NCBI GenBank assembly: GCA_964355085.1
Contig: CAYHBW010000003.1
Span: 1-42,056 of the forward strand
Direction of reading: 5' to 3'
DNA: 42,056 nucleotides
Source: an uncultured Candidatus Saccharibacteria bacterium
GTDB taxonomy: Bacteria; Patescibacteriota; Minisyncoccia; UBA6257; 02-FULL-45-10c
Each line of letters opens with the position of its first letter. The first letter of the stretch is position 1. Both the position numbers and the translations under genes were made by a program. The notes below the pieces were generated by a model that had not been told where the DNA came from, did no database searches, and saw only the letters and a program-made list of their open reading frames with translations. Below are positions 2,501 through 22,655 of the stretch, piece by piece.

Positions 2501-3604
2501 TCAGGACTGAAGATTTTCAATTACGGCCACTTCCAATGGAACGACGGCAAATGGCGAGTAGCGCATTTCGCTGTGGGCGCGTATAAGGGATTTCAGCAGA
2601 ACGATCGTTTTCTTTTCCTGCGCCAGGACTGCGTGATTTTTCAGATGAGCGAGTTCGTCTTTCGTGATTTCCTTTTCGTAAAGACCGGCGAGGTCGGGAT
2701 TCATTTTAAGCGTGATGACGCGGCGGAGATAATGGATCAGGTCTTTATTGAATTGAACCATGTTGTATCCGGCCTGATCGATTTCGTGGAGATAGGAGAG
2801 CGCTTCTTTAAGCGCTCCTTTCAGGAGATGTTCCGCAAGCTGGACGGTTTTCTTATATCCGATTTTACCGGCAATGCGTTCGACATCCTTAAGTTCGACA
2901 TCCTGATCAAGGGAAGTTATCTGTCCGAGAAGGGATTCTGCATCGCGGAGACTTCCTTCAGCGAGCGCGGCTATCAGCTCGAGAGCATCGCCGGTAATCC
3001 TGAATTTTTCGTTTTTTACGATTGAACCGAGTTTTTTCATTATTTCGTCCAGAGTCAGTTTCCGGAAATGGAATTTCTGCGTCCGGGAAGAGATCGTCGC
3101 CGGAACTTTTTCGTATTCAGTCGTGGCCAGGATGAAAATTGCGTGCGCCGGAGGTTCCTCCAGTGTTTTCAGAAGCGCATTGAAAGCTTCGCGCGTAAGC
3201 ATGTGCACTTCATCTATTATGAAAACTTTGTATTTATAGGAGGTCGGAGAGAGGCGGACGCCTTCCTGAAGATTCCGTATTTCATCTATACCGCGGTTTG
3301 ATGCGGCGTCGATTTCAATCACGTCCAGGGCCCGGCCGGAGTCTATTTCAGCGCACGGGCGGCATTCATTGCACGGCTCGCCCTTGTCATTGAATTTTTT
3401 GTCTTTCTGCCTCGTCTCGCAGTTTGCAAGTTTGGCTATGAGGCGGGCGGTTGTGGTTTTGCCAGATCCGCGGGAGCCATAAAAAAGATACGCATGCGCG
3501 AATCTATCCTGTCGGGCGGCGTTGCGGAGAATCTCTACTATATGTTCCTGGCCTAGCAGATCTTCAAAAGTTTTTGGACGGTATTTGCGGTAGATGGCTA
3601 TCAT
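2501..3604 (-). CDS. dnaX: DNA polymerase III subunit gamma/tau (short, 367 aa)
   Basis: YRKYRP, Walker A GSRGSGKTT, Cys zinc site, EIDAASNRG, DEVHML, LKTLEEPP. Confidence 0.97.
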   Translation of the reverse strand: MIAIYRKYRPKTFEDLLGQEHIVEILRNAARQDRFAHAYLFYGSRGSGKTTTARLIAKLANCETRQKDKKFNDKGEPCNECRPCAEIDSGRALDVIEIDAASNRGIDEIRNLQEGVRLSPTSYKYKVFIIDEVHMLTREAFNALLKTLEEPPAHAIFILATTEYEKVPATISSRTQKFHFRKLTLDEIMKKLGSIVKNEKFRITGDALELIAALAEGSLRDAESLLGQITSLDQDVELKDVERIAGKIGYKKTVQLAEHLLKGALKEALSYLHEIDQAGYNMVQFNKDLIHYLRRVITLKMNPDLAGLYEKEITKDELAHLKNHAVLAQEKKTIVLLKSLIRAHSEMRYSPFAVVPLEVAVIENLQS

Positions 3605-3841: not shown

Positions 3842-3916
3842 CGCGTAGAGCTGGATTCGAACACAGCGTCCTTCCGAGTTTGGACCTCGGTGCTCTGCCC
3901 ATTGAGCTATCTACGC
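3842..3916 (-). tRNA. Aberrant tRNA-Trp(CCA)-like cloverleaf
   Basis: GCGTAGA/TCTACGC acceptor, GCTC/GAGC D-stem, CCGAG/CTCGG anticodon stem with loop GT-CCA-AA, TTCGAAT T-loop, G discriminator; atypical G32, bulged T in the T-stem, no encoded CCA end. Confidence 0.55.
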
Positions 3917-6186: not shown

Positions 6187-6867
6187 ATGGATAATTCAGC
6201 AAAAACTACCGGATTGATTTCAAAGCTTGAGGCGCTGCTGTTTATTTACGGAGAACCGCTTGAGCCGAAGAAGCTGGCAAAAATCCTCGGAGTGAAGGAG
6301 TCCGAAGTTTCAGCCGGGCTGGATCTTTTGAAAAACGAACTTGGCCGCGATGAGCGGGGTCTTGTCCTGATGGAAGACAAAGAAAAAATCCAGCTTGTCA
6401 CAAAGCCGGAATTTTCCAAGCTGCTTGAAGATATCACCAAGCAGGAATTCACGGAATCTTTGACTCCGGCCGCTCTGGAAACCCTTTCAATTATCGCTTA
6501 TGCCGGTCCGATTTCCCGGGCCGATATAGAATATATCCGCGGGGTAAATTCAAGTTTCATAGTGCGGGCGCTTCTCATGAGGGGTCTTGTGGACAGAAGC
6601 GTCGACCCTAAAAGATCCAATACCTATCTGTACAGCACGAGTTTTGAATTGCTCCGCCATCTCGGTCTGACGAAGAACTCCGATCTTCCTGATTATTCGA
6701 AATATAAGGAGCTTGTCGCCCATATGCACGAGGAGCTTCAGCAAAAGGACGCGGCGCAGCAAAATCCTCTGGTTCCGGCCGATGCGACCGTTCCTGAATC
6801 TCAACCGGAAGCCCCGGTCTTGCCTGAAAATCCTGACGCTAAAGAGAAAGATCCGGAAACAGGATAA
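6187..6867 (+). CDS. scpB: Segregation and condensation protein B
   Basis: LEALLF, AALETLSIIAY.GPISRADIEYIRGVNS. Confidence 0.95.
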   Translation: MDNSAKTTGLISKLEALLFIYGEPLEPKKLAKILGVKESEVSAGLDLLKNELGRDERGLVLMEDKEKIQLVTKPEFSKLLEDITKQEFTESLTPAALETLSIIAYAGPISRADIEYIRGVNSSFIVRALLMRGLVDRSVDPKRSNTYLYSTSFELLRHLGLTKNSDLPDYSKYKELVAHMHEELQQKDAAQQNPLVPADATVPESQPEAPVLPENPDAKEKDPETG

Positions 6868-15694: not shown

Positions 15695-16320
15695 AATCCG
15701 GGAAAAAATATTACGCCTATCGCTTGGCAACCGGCGCGCAGGGTATTTGCGATAATTGGAAGGATTGCGAGAAAGTAGTTTCCGGTCGCGATGCACGGTT
15801 CCGCGGATTTGCGTCACATTCAGATGCCGAAGAGTGGCTTCGCGGAGGAGCAAGATATGAGGTGAATAGTCGAAAGTCCTTAAAGTCCATAAAGTCGAAA
15901 GTCAGCTTAATCTCCGGAGTTTATTTTGATGCGGGAACAGGGCGGGGAAATGGCGTTGAGATTAGCGTTACTGACGAATTAGGCAAAGACCTGCTCCATA
16001 AAGTTTTGGCGAAATCCAAGATCAACAGGCACGGAAAGCATTTACTAGGAAAAGAGTTTACCAATAATTATGGAGAACTTATGGCGTGTCAGTATGCATT
16101 GAAATATGCAATCAAGCACGATATTAAAAATATATTCGGTGACAGTAAATTAGTCATTGATTTTTGGTCAAAAGGACTTATTAGAAGAAATGAAATGCCG
16201 GTGGCGACGGTAAAGCTGGCGGATAAAGTTGCCAAGTTGAGAAAGGAATTTGAATCAGCCGGCGGGGAAGTGGGCCGGATTTCCGGCGATGACAATCCTG
16301 CAGATCTCGGGTTTCATTAA
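15691..16320 (+). CDS. rnhA: Ribonuclease HI with an N-terminal hybrid-binding (viroplasmin-like) domain
   Basis: KYYAY..GI..NW.DC...V.G..ARFRGF...AEEWL; YFDAG, TNNYGEL, GDSKLV, NPAD. Confidence 0.88.
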   Translation: MKSGKKYYAYRLATGAQGICDNWKDCEKVVSGRDARFRGFASHSDAEEWLRGGARYEVNSRKSLKSIKSKVSLISGVYFDAGTGRGNGVEISVTDELGKDLLHKVLAKSKINRHGKHLLGKEFTNNYGELMACQYALKYAIKHDIKNIFGDSKLVIDFWSKGLIRRNEMPVATVKLADKVAKLRKEFESAGGEVGRISGDDNPADLGFH

Positions 16321-16346
16321 AGATACTTTGAAATATTCAACTGTTA

Positions 16347-16375
16347 TTGTCAATACTTTAGAAATATGCTATAGT
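16347..16375 (+). promoter_or_regulatory. rnpB promoter TTGTCA-N17-TATAGT
   Basis: Near-consensus with extended TG. Confidence 0.7.
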
Positions 16376-16380
16376 ATTTT

Positions 16381-16750
16381 CGGTAGCTTAGATAACAGCT
16401 TCGGCGAAAGTCGGAGAGGAAAGTCCGGACACTTTTTGTCGCCTTAAGTGACTCAAAAAAAGTAGTAGCCAACGGCTACCGGCAGTAATGCAGAGGTGCG
16501 AGCAGTGACGGTCTGACCCGAAAGAGTCAGACGAACCCCATCCCAACGTTGAAGGTTTAACTCTGCCATAGGGATACAAAGCAGAGGTGAAACGGCTAAA
16601 TCCTTATTAAGTGCAAGTCCGTGCTCCGAGTAAAATCGGGGAGTGACGCAAAGATTTTTGGAGCAATCCGAAAGCAAGATAAATTGTTATCATCACCCTA
16701 AAACATTAAAAATTTTCGGGTGAGACAGAATCCGGCTTATTAGCTACCGG
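16381..16750 (+). ncRNA. rnpB: RNase P RNA
   Basis: GAGGAAAGTCC (16416-16426), ACAGAATCCGGCTTA (16725-16739), P1 CGGTAGCT/AGCTACCG. Confidence 0.96.
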
Positions 16751-16751
16751 T

Positions 16752-16781
16752 AAAAACCGCCTTCGGGCGGTTTTTACTTTT
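16752..16781 (+). terminator. rnpB terminator
   Basis: AAAAACCGCC-TTCG-GGCGGTTTTT. Confidence 0.85.
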
Positions 16782-16823
16782 CAGCTTCTAGGTTAAAATA
16801 AATCCCCCGCATAAAACAGGGGA

Positions 16824-17156
16824 TCAGTCTCTGACGATTATTGAAAAAGACCAGCCGCAGTCCTTCGTCTTCAGGCATCGCCAGTGTTTATTTTCAGTTT
16901 CCAGGGAAAAAGACACTGACCAGTTATGGCAGACCGGGCAGCGGCTAAGATTGGGATAGCTATTGAACCAATTCCGGCATTTTTGATTAGCGCAGGCCCA
17001 CCAGTCGAGGATGATATACGGGGTTATTCTGGGTTCCGTAAAAAAACGTTCGTCATCCGCCATCATTTTCGGCTGGAAAAATATTTCGAAAACCCTTTTT
17101 GCCATTTTCCCGCAATGGGTGCAGGAGAAGCTTTCCCGGAATGTCTTTCTGGGCAT
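16824..17156 (-). CDS. Hypothetical multi-zinc-ribbon protein
   Basis: CTHC, CANQKC, CPVC, CLKTKDC Cys pairs. Confidence 0.65.
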   Translation of the reverse strand: MPRKTFRESFSCTHCGKMAKRVFEIFFQPKMMADDERFFTEPRITPYIILDWWACANQKCRNWFNSYPNLSRCPVCHNWSVSFSLETENKHWRCLKTKDCGWSFSIIVRD

Positions 17157-17297
17157 TGCATCTTCATCGTTTTATGTTCTGAAATCAGATTACAACTTCC
17201 GCATTGTTTATTCAAACACATTCAGAATCCCCGATTCGAACCGCTTTTAAAAAATAAAGCCACCTTTTCAGGGGTGGCTTCAGGAAGCAGGCCGTTG

Positions 17298-17501
17298 TTA
17301 CGGGCAATACTTCCAGATGAGGTACTTTATCTGGCGCTTGATCCAGGCCGGATTCCGGTGCTGCTCCTCCGAGAAGAACAGGATTGCGAATCCGACCATC
17401 GCCAAAGCCATGCTTAGCATGAAGTGGCCGTTCTCGACTACTCCGACGCTTGCGACTATGAGACATCCTCCGGTGAAGATCATCGTGTTGTTCAGCCGCA
17501 T
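17298..17501 (-). CDS. Small 2-TM membrane protein
   Basis: GGAGG SD, two hydrophobic helices, terminator at ~17248-17282. Confidence 0.75.
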   Translation of the reverse strand: MRLNNTMIFTGGCLIVASVGVVENGHFMLSMALAMVGFAILFFSEEQHRNPAWIKRQIKYLIWKYCP

Positions 17502-17532
17502 TTGTCCTCCGTGATTGATTTACGGCATCAGG

Positions 17533-18061
17533 AAAAAAAGGCCCTTGCCGGACCGCAGTCATGCGCTTTGAGATTTGGCCCTCGGGGATCCATTTCTCTC
17601 TGCGCTGTTTCTGCGGTCCGGCAAGGGTTACTTACGTCGCTGCCGGTTGTTTCTCTTTCTTATTCACGCACCACGGGTTGGTTGGCGGTGCGTCCGTCCC
17701 GAGGAGCGGATAAGCGAATCTTTTGAATCCGCTGATTCGCTTCTCGGTTCGGGCCCCGGAAAATCGGGCCCCACGGCGCTTGTTTTTCAATCAGAGGTCG
17801 GCTTGCGCCTGCTCTGCGTTGTCGACGTCCTCGGGAATCTTGTTCGATTAACCCGATTCTGTCTTCCAAGCACTGCCCCTTATAAGGGCATTCCGTGAGG
17901 CCGCCTTTGACGCTTAGTCAGTTGCACTTTCGTGCCTCCTTTTGGCCTGTATGGCCGGTGGAGCGCTTCCAGGATTTTCCGCGGCTAATCCGGGAAGCGA
18001 GAAATAAGAAGGGGGTACCCTGCGCATTTCTCGCTTCCCGGCAGTACATATTTCAAATAAC
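17533..18061 (-). ncRNA. Putative ~530-nt large structured ncRNA or long regulatory leader
   Basis: TTGACA-17-TATGCT promoter, 16-bp and 17-bp perfect stems, GNRA-capped hairpins, long-range 9-bp helix, terminal stem + T7; no convincing long ORF. Confidence 0.65.
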
Positions 18062-18067
18062 TTAAAT

Positions 18068-18096
18068 AGCATAGCATACAATATGAAATATGTCAA
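18068..18096 (-). promoter_or_regulatory. Sigma70 promoter TTGACA-N17-TATGCT
   Basis: Perfect -35, 17-bp spacer, extended TG. Confidence 0.8.
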
Positions 18097-18170
18097 CTAT
18101 AAGCGGAGTATTGAAAAATCCGATCCGGATATGTATCCTATGATCAGTTTTCCTATCAAAGGCGGCTGAA

Positions 18171-18452
18171 ATGAGCGGAGTATCCGGATTGAATGATTGG
18201 CTCATCGAAGTGGAAAAAGTCATCAGGGATGAATTCGGCGCGGCCATTTGGGTCAGATTGAAATATTTTAAGATTTCCGGGAAATCGGGAGCTGCGGAGA
18301 AGATTCTGCATCATGATCTCGTATTCATGCCGGATCGGGACGGCTGGGTTTTTGTCCGGCGCAGAATCTCCGGAGATTTTGTTCCCGATAACCGTTACAA
18401 CCGGATGGCAAGACAGGCCAGCGCGATTTTTTCAGAAAAAAATACTGATTAA
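18171..18452 (+). CDS. Hypothetical protein (93 aa)
   Basis: ORF with plausible composition and AAGGCGG upstream. Confidence 0.55.
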   Translation: MSGVSGLNDWLIEVEKVIRDEFGAAIWVRLKYFKISGKSGAAEKILHHDLVFMPDRDGWVFVRRRISGDFVPDNRYNRMARQASAIFSEKNTD

Positions 18453-18526
18453 TCTGGCGGGAAGAGTGATTGACCTTTTGCCTATTTTCATGCATAATTC
18501 ATCCAGCTTTTCATACGGAGGACGGC

Positions 18527-18865
18527 ATGCACATAGTATGCGAAAGATTTCCCGATAACTTGTCGGTTCTTGTCAGCGGATATGATCCGGAGCGCGATCC
18601 GGAGAAGGAATTTTGCGCGGTTTTCCGGTCAACGGAGGAGGAAAATACAGTCCAGCTTGTCAGCAGGCATTTTCGAAGCCACGGCGCACCGGAACGATGC
18701 ACTATTCTCGCCGTGGCAAGCAGAGAGGATCGCGCTATTTTCGAGAAGATGCTTCCCAGATTTTATGAAGCGGCAATGCTGTCATTCGGATTCACGGCTT
18801 TCGACGATAGCTTGCATCCTAAGCAGATTCAATTGCCGCTATCTGAAAAAAGCGGAGATGTCTGA
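18527..18865 (+). CDS. Hypothetical protein
   Basis: GGAGG SD before ATG 18527, TTGACC..CATAAT promoter, terminator at ~18871-18900. Confidence 0.7.
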   Translation: MHIVCERFPDNLSVLVSGYDPERDPEKEFCAVFRSTEEENTVQLVSRHFRSHGAPERCTILAVASREDRAIFEKMLPRFYEAAMLSFGFTAFDDSLHPKQIQLPLSEKSGDV

Positions 18866-18957
18866 TGTTTTGCCCCCGGAAACGGGGGCTTTTATTTTTC
18901 CACGACGCTGAAATTTCTTTTGTCTATTTCGTATCTTGAATTCGTCCGTTCGCATAC

Positions 18958-19926
18958 CTATATTTTCTTGGATTTGATTATTTTATTCAGTATTTTTTTC
19001 ACTCTCTCTATGCTGTCGAGGTCATAAATGGAAATGGCATCCACTTTCGAATTGAGTTTCTTCAGTTTGGCGATTTTGGATTTCAGGTCTTTCTCCGGTA
19101 CAGCGTCGGTTTTGCTGACAAAGATGTACTCTTCCTTATTCAGAAGCTCCTTATTGTATGCGCCGAGCTCTTTCCGGATGGACTTGTAATCTTTCACGGC
19201 ATTTTCCGATTCCGCGGAAATTATATGGAATAGGATTTTCGTCCTTTCGACATGTCTTAAGAATTTTATGCCGAGACCTTTCCCCGCGGAAGCTCCCTCA
19301 ATCAATCCCGGCAGGTCAGCCAGAATAAGTTCATAGAAAGTTCCCAAATTCGGCTCAAGTGTTGTGAATGCGTAATTGGCGACTTTGCTCTGGGCGCGGG
19401 TCAGCTCGTTCAGGAGACTGGATTTGCCGACATTCGGATAACCGATCAGGCCGACATCGGCGATGAGTTTCAGTTCAAGCCGCAATGTCGCAGTTTCTCC
19501 AGGAAGTCCGAACTGGAATCTTTTCGGGCTTGTGCTTTTCGGTCCGCGGAAAAGATAATTTCCTTTTCCTCCGTGTCCGCCTTTGGCGACGCGGATCTGC
19601 TGGCCGATTTTTGTGATTTCCTCATCAGTGCCGGCTTCCGCATTGTGAATGACCGTTCCGACCGGAACTTTCAGAATCAGGTCTTCGGAGGTCGTACCGT
19701 CGCGGAACTGGCTTCGTCCGTCTTCGCCGTTTCTGGCATTCAGATCTTTCTTGTGCCGGAAATGATTCAAGGCGCTCAAGTCAGATACTCCTTCGCAGAC
19801 GACATTTCCTCCGTCGCCTCCGTTTCCGCCGGCCGGACCGATTGCCATTTTATTTTTATCAAAAGCTACGGCTCCGCGTCCGCCGGCTCCGGCCCTGACT
19901 TTTATCGTCACATCATCTATGAGCAT
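18958..19926 (-). CDS. obgE: GTPase ObgE/CgtA (no C-terminal extension)
   Basis: Gly-rich Obg fold, ADVGLIGYPNVGKSS, YAFTTLEPNLG, DLPGLIEGA. Confidence 0.97.
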   Translation of the reverse strand: MLIDDVTIKVRAGAGGRGAVAFDKNKMAIGPAGGNGGDGGNVVCEGVSDLSALNHFRHKKDLNARNGEDGRSQFRDGTTSEDLILKVPVGTVIHNAEAGTDEEITKIGQQIRVAKGGHGGKGNYLFRGPKSTSPKRFQFGLPGETATLRLELKLIADVGLIGYPNVGKSSLLNELTRAQSKVANYAFTTLEPNLGTFYELILADLPGLIEGASAGKGLGIKFLRHVERTKILFHIISAESENAVKDYKSIRKELGAYNKELLNKEEYIFVSKTDAVPEKDLKSKIAKLKKLNSKVDAISIYDLDSIERVKKILNKIIKSKKI

Positions 19927-22584: not shown

Positions 22585-22655
22585 TTCCGGGACAGGGATT
22601 CGAACCCCAATTCTGCGCTCCAGAGGCGCATGTCCTACCATTAGACGATCCCGGA
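22585..22655 (-). tRNA. tRNA-Gln(CTG)
   Basis: TCCGGGA/TCCCGGA acceptor, D-loop TAATGGTAG, TGCGC-CT-CTG-GA-GCGCA anticodon arm, GGTTCGAATCC; CCA not encoded. Confidence 0.92.

Follow-up and report, generated by a model that had tools for sequence, protein, structure and literature searches.

Beyond the universal set, few large bacterial RNAs with an intricate fold exist, and every new class that turned up has started a line of research of its own. GOLLD, ROOL, and HEARO, all found by comparative genomics, are orphan large structured noncoding RNAs (ncRNAs) of bacteria whose function is unknown or partly known; RNAIII/hld and SgrS/SgrT represent dual-function small RNAs that carry a small open reading frame (ORF). 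The raiA motif is described as a large structured bacterial ncRNA of the same general kind (PMC10861870), and OLE (ornate, large, extremophilic) RNA is described as part of a membrane-associated ribonucleoprotein (RNP) (PMC9723947, PMC10898510, PMC12054373). Here we analyzed a predicted RNA encoded on the minus strand at positions 17,533–18,061 of a 42,056-nucleotide (nt) stretch of DNA, referred to as the window, which spans positions 1 to 42,056 of contig CAYHBW010000003.1 (assembly GCA_964355085.1) of an uncultured Candidatus Saccharibacteria bacterium (genome G000). Its closest analogy is OLE RNA, of which it is not a member. As judged from comparative sequence analysis, it is a previously undescribed, lineage-restricted, large structured RNA element, and we see about an even chance that it is the product of a stand-alone ncRNA gene, ~530 nt long here and 425–580 nt in relatives, with small-protein partners.

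Results

Homologs and conserved helices

Five further genomes of the family (G001, G002, G004, G005, and G016) carry homologs of the element at this locus, giving three genera in total. By BLAST, one clear homolog emerged from 61 related genomes, that of G001 from the same genus, with 75% and 73% identity over two blocks; a match in G017 was discarded, as it covered 32 nt of the promoter region only and not the RNA. Gene order in G001 is as in the window, namely obg, a small gene on the opposite strand, the promoter, an RNA of ~428 nt, genes for small transmembrane (TM) proteins, a gene for a zinc-ribbon-like protein, and a convergent RNase P RNA, and the G001 RNA folds with a z-score of −9.3. 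The remaining copies, all adjoining the zinc-ribbon gene, were located with that protein as an anchor and with two covariance models derived from the G000 and G001 sequences; in G004, the copy has diverged further, and its recognition was partly by eye. Predicted start-to-terminator lengths are 529, 428, 580, 425, and 485 nt, plus at least 352 nt for the G002 copy, the 5′ part of which is lost to a contig end, and all minimum free energies (MFEs) are very low.

Pairs were counted on MAFFT alignments of five or six sequences each, with structures derived by RNAalifold from the same alignments; G016 is slightly misaligned in P5, and the P1 set includes a copy from G012, which lacks the RNA, as well as a second copy from G002. 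Over the 23 pairs of P1, 92.8% of the cells were paired in six sequences and 12 pairs carried two-sided changes; none of 500 shuffles reached the covariation score, and slid controls were at 31–51%. The long-range helix P3 (nine pairs, five genomes) was paired in 100% of the cells, three pairs showing two-sided changes; 10 of 500 shuffles reached this share, and slid controls gave 31–57%. For P4 and P5 taken together (27 pairs, five sequences), 89.1% were paired with 15 two-sided changes; again, the covariation score was reached in 0/500 shuffles, and slid controls remained at 33–41%. The sequence has diverged to 45–76% mean column identity while these four helices stay paired. Comparison of the aligned homologs thus showed the predicted helices P1, P3, P4, and P5 to be kept by compensatory change across three genera.

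An initial annotation, made by reading the sequence of the window, had listed a dense run of helices on this strand. Its perfect 16-bp stem (17990–18005/18026–18041) turned out to be the outer part of the 24-nt inverted repeat that the repeat finder returned and that we term P1; the hairpins GCAC-GAAA-GTGC, TGCCC/GGGCA, and ACGCACC/GGTGCGT are likewise present on reading the sequence (Table 1). Three of its nine helices are complementary as described, yet the homologs conserve other pairings. In the case of the 9-bp helix 17828–17836/17697–17705, the 5′ arm lies in a stretch missing from G001, and the 3′ arm belongs to the base of P4, where it pairs with 17743–17747. The first arm of the GGGCCC hairpin at 17751–17771 belongs to the 3′ strand of P3, in which 17767–17776 pairs with 17893–17902 throughout the five genomes. 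For the 9-bp hairpin at 17712–17742, a shifted register is the one that is conserved.

Several conserved single-stranded features go beyond the initial annotation: an AAGGAGG box, the motifs AAUGCCC and CGAUUUYC, the internal loops of P4, and the C/A-rich loop of P5. AAGGAGG is kept in all five homologs with an assembled 5′ half, with GGGAGG as the variant in G016. Inside P3, AAUGCCC…GGG is conserved, and the UGCCC/GGGCA stem, being invariant, yields no covariation; (C)GAUUUYC directly follows P3. The insert within P3 is variable, and ~63 nt of it are missing in G001.

Apart from its pairing, P1 has a purine-rich 5′ strand that resembles a ribosome-binding site and a 3′ strand that is anti-Shine–Dalgarno-like. 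Pairing of this 3′ strand with the ribosome-binding site of the TM gene was considered and rejected; by eye it comprises 7–8 bases in G001 and G012 and fragments in G000, and P1 itself is far more stable. Together with the promoter, P1 also occurs as a free-standing module right before small TM genes in G002 (L013:362–470) and G012 (L016, reverse strand, ~3085–3270).

Promoter, terminator, and strand

Upstream of the element lies a near-consensus σ70-type promoter, with 10/12 consensus matches in the promoter scan and a TG preceding the −10 box, where the initial annotation had placed TTGACA-17-TATGCT. The layout TTGACA-N14-ATGCTAT is common to 7/7 loci, G012 included, stands before the RNA in 4/4 homologs with an assembled 5′ end (G001, G004, G005, and G016), and is found at only 10 sites in the 807-kb G000 genome. 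At the other end, every homolog closes with a GC-rich hairpin and then a U tract; in G000, the 17-bp stem that had been claimed was returned by the repeat finder as perfect, with the T7 run next to it.

The fraction of G and C over the element (300-nt windows) is 0.55–0.57 compared with 0.461 for the whole 807-kb genome. The minus strand folds with an MFE of −247 kcal/mol versus −171.3 ± 7.0 kcal/mol for 100 dinucleotide-preserving shuffles (z −10.9, 0/100 as good). Since the plus strand folds about as well (−246.8 kcal/mol, z −8.6), energy alone cannot assign the strand. Our assignment to the minus strand is based on the conserved promoter, the U-tract terminator downstream, and the excess of G-U over A-C cells in the conserved helices (25 versus 11). 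G000 contains one copy of the element, which is hence not a dispersed repeat.

Near-identical DNA is present in 10 public sequencing runs from three studies, all of them DNA, and those labeled by organism are groundwater metagenomes. Reads of four runs gave contigs of low depth that equal the window in sequence, and two short pieces 90–95% alike, both from groundwater run X4; these correspond to 17891–17955 and 17718–17753, the two best-conserved parts of the RNA. These pieces suggest further relatives in groundwater samples.

The other strong-promoter sites in G000 precede genes with conserved leaders, the gene for a KH-type protein, and two ORF-free stretches. The latter, on contigs C19 (~16600–17180, minus strand) and C22 (~6340–6590, plus strand; loci L101 and L102), are GC-rich and located directly behind a TTGACA-N14-ATGCTAT promoter. 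A terminator closes the C22 stretch. In Rfam, the two stretches gave nothing above chance level at E ≤ 1, and both are further candidate ncRNAs outside the window. Five of the 10 strong promoters (contigs C4, C15, C19, C24, and C30) precede a shared leader made up of an AUCGAGG…GAUCCCG hairpin and then a UUGAA box, which mostly heads related proteins of ~100–230 amino acids (aa) of no assigned function; the 5′ leader of the present RNA likewise contains a UUGAA-like box.

Distribution

The covariance model R2 detected the RNA in 4/23 genomes of the family, a count that becomes 6/23 with the loci inspected by hand. A second, five-sequence model (R3) was run on 151 genomes drawn evenly from the order, with stricter filters above 40 genomes. 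It matched three of the eight family members in this sample and none of the 143 sampled genomes that represent 31 other families in that order. An exact-pattern scan of a species-genome collection gave 22 loci; R3 confirmed two, recorded as Candidatus Paceibacter sp. and Candidatus Harrisonbacteria bacterium, and the other 20 came from unrelated phyla. In viral contigs the pattern had no match, and the metagenome scan gave 32 loci, none scoring with R2 at E ≤ 1 and none a convincing homolog. R3 scores of 14–18 bits on five mutually related metagenome contigs (L026, L040, L042, L046, and L049) were treated as chance or as a different element. These five contigs share a conserved GC-rich element with no Rfam match, which in L040 follows, as judged by eye, what resembles the 3′ half of a tRNA and then a terminator. 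As far as the sequences searched reveal, the predicted RNA family is restricted to one Patescibacteria family, and its hosts are related ultra-small groundwater Patescibacteria, a narrow set of 6/23 genomes.

Known RNA families and coding potential

When the whole window was compared by cmscan with Rfam 15 (4227 families), the sole matches at gathering score were two tRNA genes, at 3842–3916 and 22585–22655 on the minus strand, with nothing at the element. Over 16200–19100 at E ≤ 10, the only match inside the element was a chance match of mir-483 to the plus strand (20.9 bits versus a gathering score of 60). The absence of known RNA signatures noted in the initial annotation therefore holds at gathering score and, on the strand of the element, at E ≤ 10. 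The OLE covariance model (RF01071) had no match at either level; the model for transfer-messenger RNA (tmRNA; RF00023) had none in the region, the tmRNA of this genome being on another contig (131.5 bits). RNase P RNA (RF00010) is a neighboring element and not the RNA under study; it matched 16380–16754 on the plus strand with E 3e-25 and 83.9 bits, the gathering score being 100. This RNase P RNA is of class A, and its alignment skips large portions of the model; a promoter-like site of its own lies at 16347–16375, and it is convergent to the zinc-ribbon gene, as in G001, G004, G005, and G012.

No reading frame is conserved over the element. In the G000/G001 alignment, mismatches are even over the three phases in ungapped blocks of at least 24 nt, gap runs of 1, 2, 2, 7, and 10 nt break any frame, and the longer ORFs of the two genomes fall in different frames. 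Under genetic code table 25, a 129-aa frame with one TGA opens; it was rejected because the neighbors are open under table 11 and no frame is conserved with G001. A TIGR/CRISPR-like guide array was likewise dismissed, as 17533–18061 contains no direct-repeat family and no neighboring protein falls in a defense family. With pairings rather than a frame conserved, covariation present, and no Rfam match, the reading as an undescribed structured ncRNA was supported. The top results of an open full-text literature search, supplements lying outside its scope, included no paper on large structured ncRNAs of Patescibacteria. A conserved promoter and terminator of its own, a covarying fold, and the lack of a conserved ORF are what would be expected of a stand-alone ncRNA gene.

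Neighboring genes

The gene for the 67-aa protein with two predicted membrane helices (2-TM) follows the RNA in 4/6 loci. It has a strong ribosome-binding site, and its distance of 31 nt from the U tract agrees with the ~30 nt claimed initially; no promoter-like site was seen between the two in G000. An Arg-rich C-terminal tail is common to the TM proteins, as read from the translations, and the 2-TM protein has a Pfam match below threshold only. The zinc-ribbon-like protein was found in 8/61 genomes, one copy being weak and broken. Its Pfam match is also sub-threshold, the Atlas leads are generic zinc ribbons below 0.9, and its structure model, with a predicted local distance difference test (pLDDT) score of 43.5, is unusable. 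The 93-aa family occurs in 9/23 genomes of the family; its AlphaFold2 model consists of four strands and a helix (pLDDT 81.5), and Foldseek found no match to it in the PDB at E ≤ 0.001. For the four small neighbors, nothing was found in Pfam at or above threshold, in NCBIfam, or in PADLOC. The 131-aa ORF, together with its terminator, is flanked by the arms of an 18-nt inverted repeat (18435–18452/18983–19000, 94% complementary). In G003, which lacks the large RNA, the 93-aa gene and the TM-gene promoter are separated by a GC-rich stretch of ~170 nt containing two long hairpins (L074:1820–1980).

Table 1. Features of the predicted RNA and its surroundings, in window coordinates.
Feature	Position	Strand	Remarks
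Promoter	18068–18096	−	TTGACA −35 box (18091–18096), 17-nt spacer with TG, TATGCT −10 box (18068–18073)
Predicted transcript, ~529 nt	17533–18061	−	Putative start ~7 nt past the −10 box; end at the U7 tract
P1, long 5′ hairpin	17990–18041	−	~20 nt past the putative start; arms 17990–18013/18018–18041, 24 nt, 88%, outer 16 bp perfect
AAGGAGG, Shine–Dalgarno-like, in junction	17935–17941	−	Conserved in homologs
GCAC-GAAA-GUGC hairpin	17924–17935	−	Identical in G001; longer hairpins instead in G004 and G005
Candidate 15-codon small ORF, doubtful	17880–17927	−	GTG start 7 nt past AAGGAGG
P3 long-range helix, 5′ strand GGCCUCACGG	17893–17902	−	Partner 17767–17776
UGCCC/GGGCA hairpin just inside P3	17874–17890	−	Seen in G000, G005, and G016; looser in G001
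Variable insert in P3	17777–17873	−	Contains a GCAA-capped hairpin (17792–17816); length and sequence differ in every homolog
P3 long-range helix, 3′ strand CCGUGGGGCC	17767–17776	−	Partner 17893–17902
Conserved single-stranded CGAUUUUCC after P3	17758–17766	−	GAUUU invariant in the five-sequence alignment; AAUUU in G002
P4, irregular hairpin	17699–17747	−	Two conserved internal loops; 21 pairs, 12 with two-sided changes, five genomes
P5 hairpin, C/A-rich loop	17666–17693	−	ACGCACC/GGTGCGT; six pairs, three with two-sided changes; also in G004
Purine-rich linker	17628–17665	−	A/G-rich in G000, G001, and G005
3′ hairpin and U7, predicted intrinsic terminator	17533–17627	−	17-bp perfect outer stem 17542–17558/17611–17627, T7 17533–17539
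67-aa protein, two predicted membrane helices, Arg-rich tail	17298–17501	−	Predicted by reading the translation; starts 31 nt past the U tract
110-aa Cys-rich, zinc-ribbon-like protein	16824–17156	−	Eight invariant Cys; constant downstream neighbor, 7/7 loci
93-aa protein, divergently transcribed	18171–18452	+	Adjoins the promoter in G000, G004, G005, G016, G012, and G003
Conserved small protein, ~100–131 aa	18470–18865	+	Between obg and the RNA promoter, with the 93-aa gene; no family match

Discussion

A half kilobase kept by compensatory change across three genera, here in an ultra-small 0.8-Mb groundwater genome where noncoding DNA is scarce, implies a real function. We favor, with our confidence about evenly balanced, a separate RNA gene that shares the promoter-proximal P1 module and its neighborhood with small-protein genes. 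Between promoter and terminator, the sequence can form a multi-domain fold in the order P1, the AAGGAGG junction, P3 with the variable insert, GAUUUYC, P4, P5, the purine-rich linker, and the terminator hairpin. The RNA would then accumulate as a discrete, stable molecule and act in its own right. Its most likely role would be that of a scaffold or binding partner of the zinc-ribbon-like, the 2-TM (with its Arg-rich tail), and the 93-aa proteins, and in G000 leak-through at the terminator would be the only transcription supply of the 2-TM gene.

Several points weigh against this stand-alone RNA gene. The covariation statistics come from six homologs that are kin within one family, with structures taken from the very alignments tested, and are indicative rather than proof. 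We infer the start, end, abundance, and transcription of the RNA from DNA, and the protein partners are proposed from gene neighborhood; none of the small proteins has a recognized RNA-binding domain according to Pfam, NCBIfam, PADLOC, Atlas, and Foldseek. P4 is absent from its usual place in G004. In G000, G001, and G004, the TM gene lies 24–33 nt past the U tract with no promoter detected in between, which is leader-like and means that it must be reached by read-through, and in every RNA-bearing locus (6/6) the RNA precedes co-directional TM and/or zinc-ribbon genes.

The last two points also speak for the strongest competing explanation, namely that the RNA is a very long cis-acting 5′ leader or attenuator of the 2-TM and zinc-ribbon operon, the body of which would act as a sensor, be it of a ligand, a protein, or temperature, and thereby set read-through. 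P1 also occurs in the TM leaders that lack the RNA in G012 and G002, in line with this idea. We consider it a tentative alternative, clearly less probable than a separate RNA gene. In G002, a second promoter and a second P1 hairpin are inserted between the RNA terminator and the TM genes, which are thereby provided with a promoter of their own; in G012 (another genus) and G003 (same genus), promoter and TM genes occur without the RNA body. Conversely, G005 and G016 have kept the RNA and lost the TM gene, of which only the terminator-like hairpin remains in G016. Thus, RNA and TM gene are separable in relatives, which favors a stand-alone ncRNA over a pure cis-leader. Furthermore, the terminators are long and perfect, and in none of the six RNAs did a terminator arm, tested for pairing with the 200 nt upstream, exceed the 5% tail obtained with shuffled arms; this test is crude and blind to protein-mediated antitermination. 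There is no Rfam match to a riboswitch or leader. Leaders seldom have so many helices or a length of 425–580 nt, which is two to three times their typical size. The initial annotation had left the choice between an independent ncRNA and a leader dedicated to the 2-TM gene; the former fits the comparative data better; however, the 2-TM gene of G000 has no promoter of its own, which leaves the latter some probability.

A dual-function RNA or leader-peptide device is a further, improbable explanation. Here, AAGGAGG would feed a basic ORF of 12–15 codons that runs into the 5′ strand of P3, so that translation would remodel the RNA. The box, including its GGGAGG variant, is kept wherever the 5′ half is assembled, and in G000, G001, and G004, all of the same genus, a GTG or ATG 6–9 nt past it opens similar basic peptides of 12–15 aa. 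A 3-nt indel preserves the frame, and the seven mismatches are distributed over the phases as 1, 2, and 4, with most in the third position. However, seven mismatches are too few for a test, G005 has no start codon in range, and the ORF of G016 is unrelated and 34 codons long. A start codon within 3–12 nt is expected by chance in about 4/10 cases by our arithmetic, and the conserved Pro-His codons, which fall on the P3 strand, are equally well explained by RNA pairing. The small ORF is thus, weakly, a genus-level possibility.

Processing of a precursor into two or more smaller stable RNAs appears more doubtful still. The unit would be a long GC-closed helix plus (C)GAUUU, with the last unit doubling as the terminator. 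A helix ending in GGGGCC and followed by CGAUUU is seen after P3, a similar arrangement occurs at the terminator, and G004 has an extra internal module copy; set against this, the basis of the model is a sequence pattern.

We attach very little weight to a strongly divergent housekeeping RNA missed by the Rfam models, such as signal recognition particle (SRP) RNA or 6S RNA. Matches to SRP RNA (RF00169, RF01854) and 6S RNA (RF00013) were lacking anywhere in the 95.6%-complete G000 genome, which might seem to leave a vacancy, and a simple motif scan of this genome for an SRP-like domain gave nothing useful. However, RF00169 was blank in all 23 family genomes, at least 17 of which lack the RNA; its presence does not track the gap, which therefore tells more of the models than of the element. 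The missing RNAs are either too divergent for the models or unassembled. Over the region itself there was no SRP or 6S match at E ≤ 10, a length of 425–580 nt fits neither family, and absence of the RNA from the intact same-genus locus of G003 is unexpected for a universal RNA. Equally remote is a nonfunctional origin, i.e., DNA-level palindromes or an eroded gene that folds by chance: the two strands do fold equally well and transcription is deduced from DNA, but the compensatory changes in four helices at the above degree of divergence, the G-U excess, the conserved promoter and terminator, the lack of a conserved frame, and the single copy all argue otherwise.

Returning to the separate RNA gene, a bolder version, which we regard as unlikely and which draws on analogy, would be an independently evolved, OLE-like membrane RNP. 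Here, the Arg-rich cytoplasmic tail of the 2-TM protein would tether the RNA to the membrane, and the double zinc-ribbon and the 93-aa beta-rich proteins would decorate it. If true, this would be a rare, lineage-specific RNA machine of half a kilobase in an ultra-reduced 0.8-Mb genome. The RNA is a well-defined candidate for metatranscriptomics, structure probing, and cryo-electron microscopy, with three small proteins as testable partners.

Among known systems, long 5′ leaders, riboswitches, and attenuators share with this locus the succession of promoter, structured RNA, terminator, and then a gene with a strong ribosome-binding site within ~30 nt. The element differs from them in that it has no known aptamer match and no detectable antiterminator and is separable from the downstream gene. 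Dual-function small RNAs likewise combine a structured RNA with a ribosome-binding site and a very short ORF, whereas the candidate ORF here is conserved in one genus only (3/5 homologs). With GOLLD, ROOL, raiA, and HEARO, the RNA has in common that it is long, GC-rich, and heavily structured. It matches none of their covariance models, is narrower in distribution (one family, 6/23 genomes), and has no phage or mobile context, as judged by the absence of matches in viral contigs, its single copy, and conserved chromosomal synteny. OLE RNA is found in Bacillota, whereas the present RNA resides in a Patescibacterium, gives no match to the OLE model, and has neighbors of no known family; its TM gene, which would have to be of oapA type in an OLE RNP, is absent at 2/6 loci, and membrane association would be pure conjecture. 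What the RNA shares with OLE RNA (RF01071) is a length of ~500–600 nt, many conserved helices, restriction to a lineage, and an adjacent gene for a small membrane protein.

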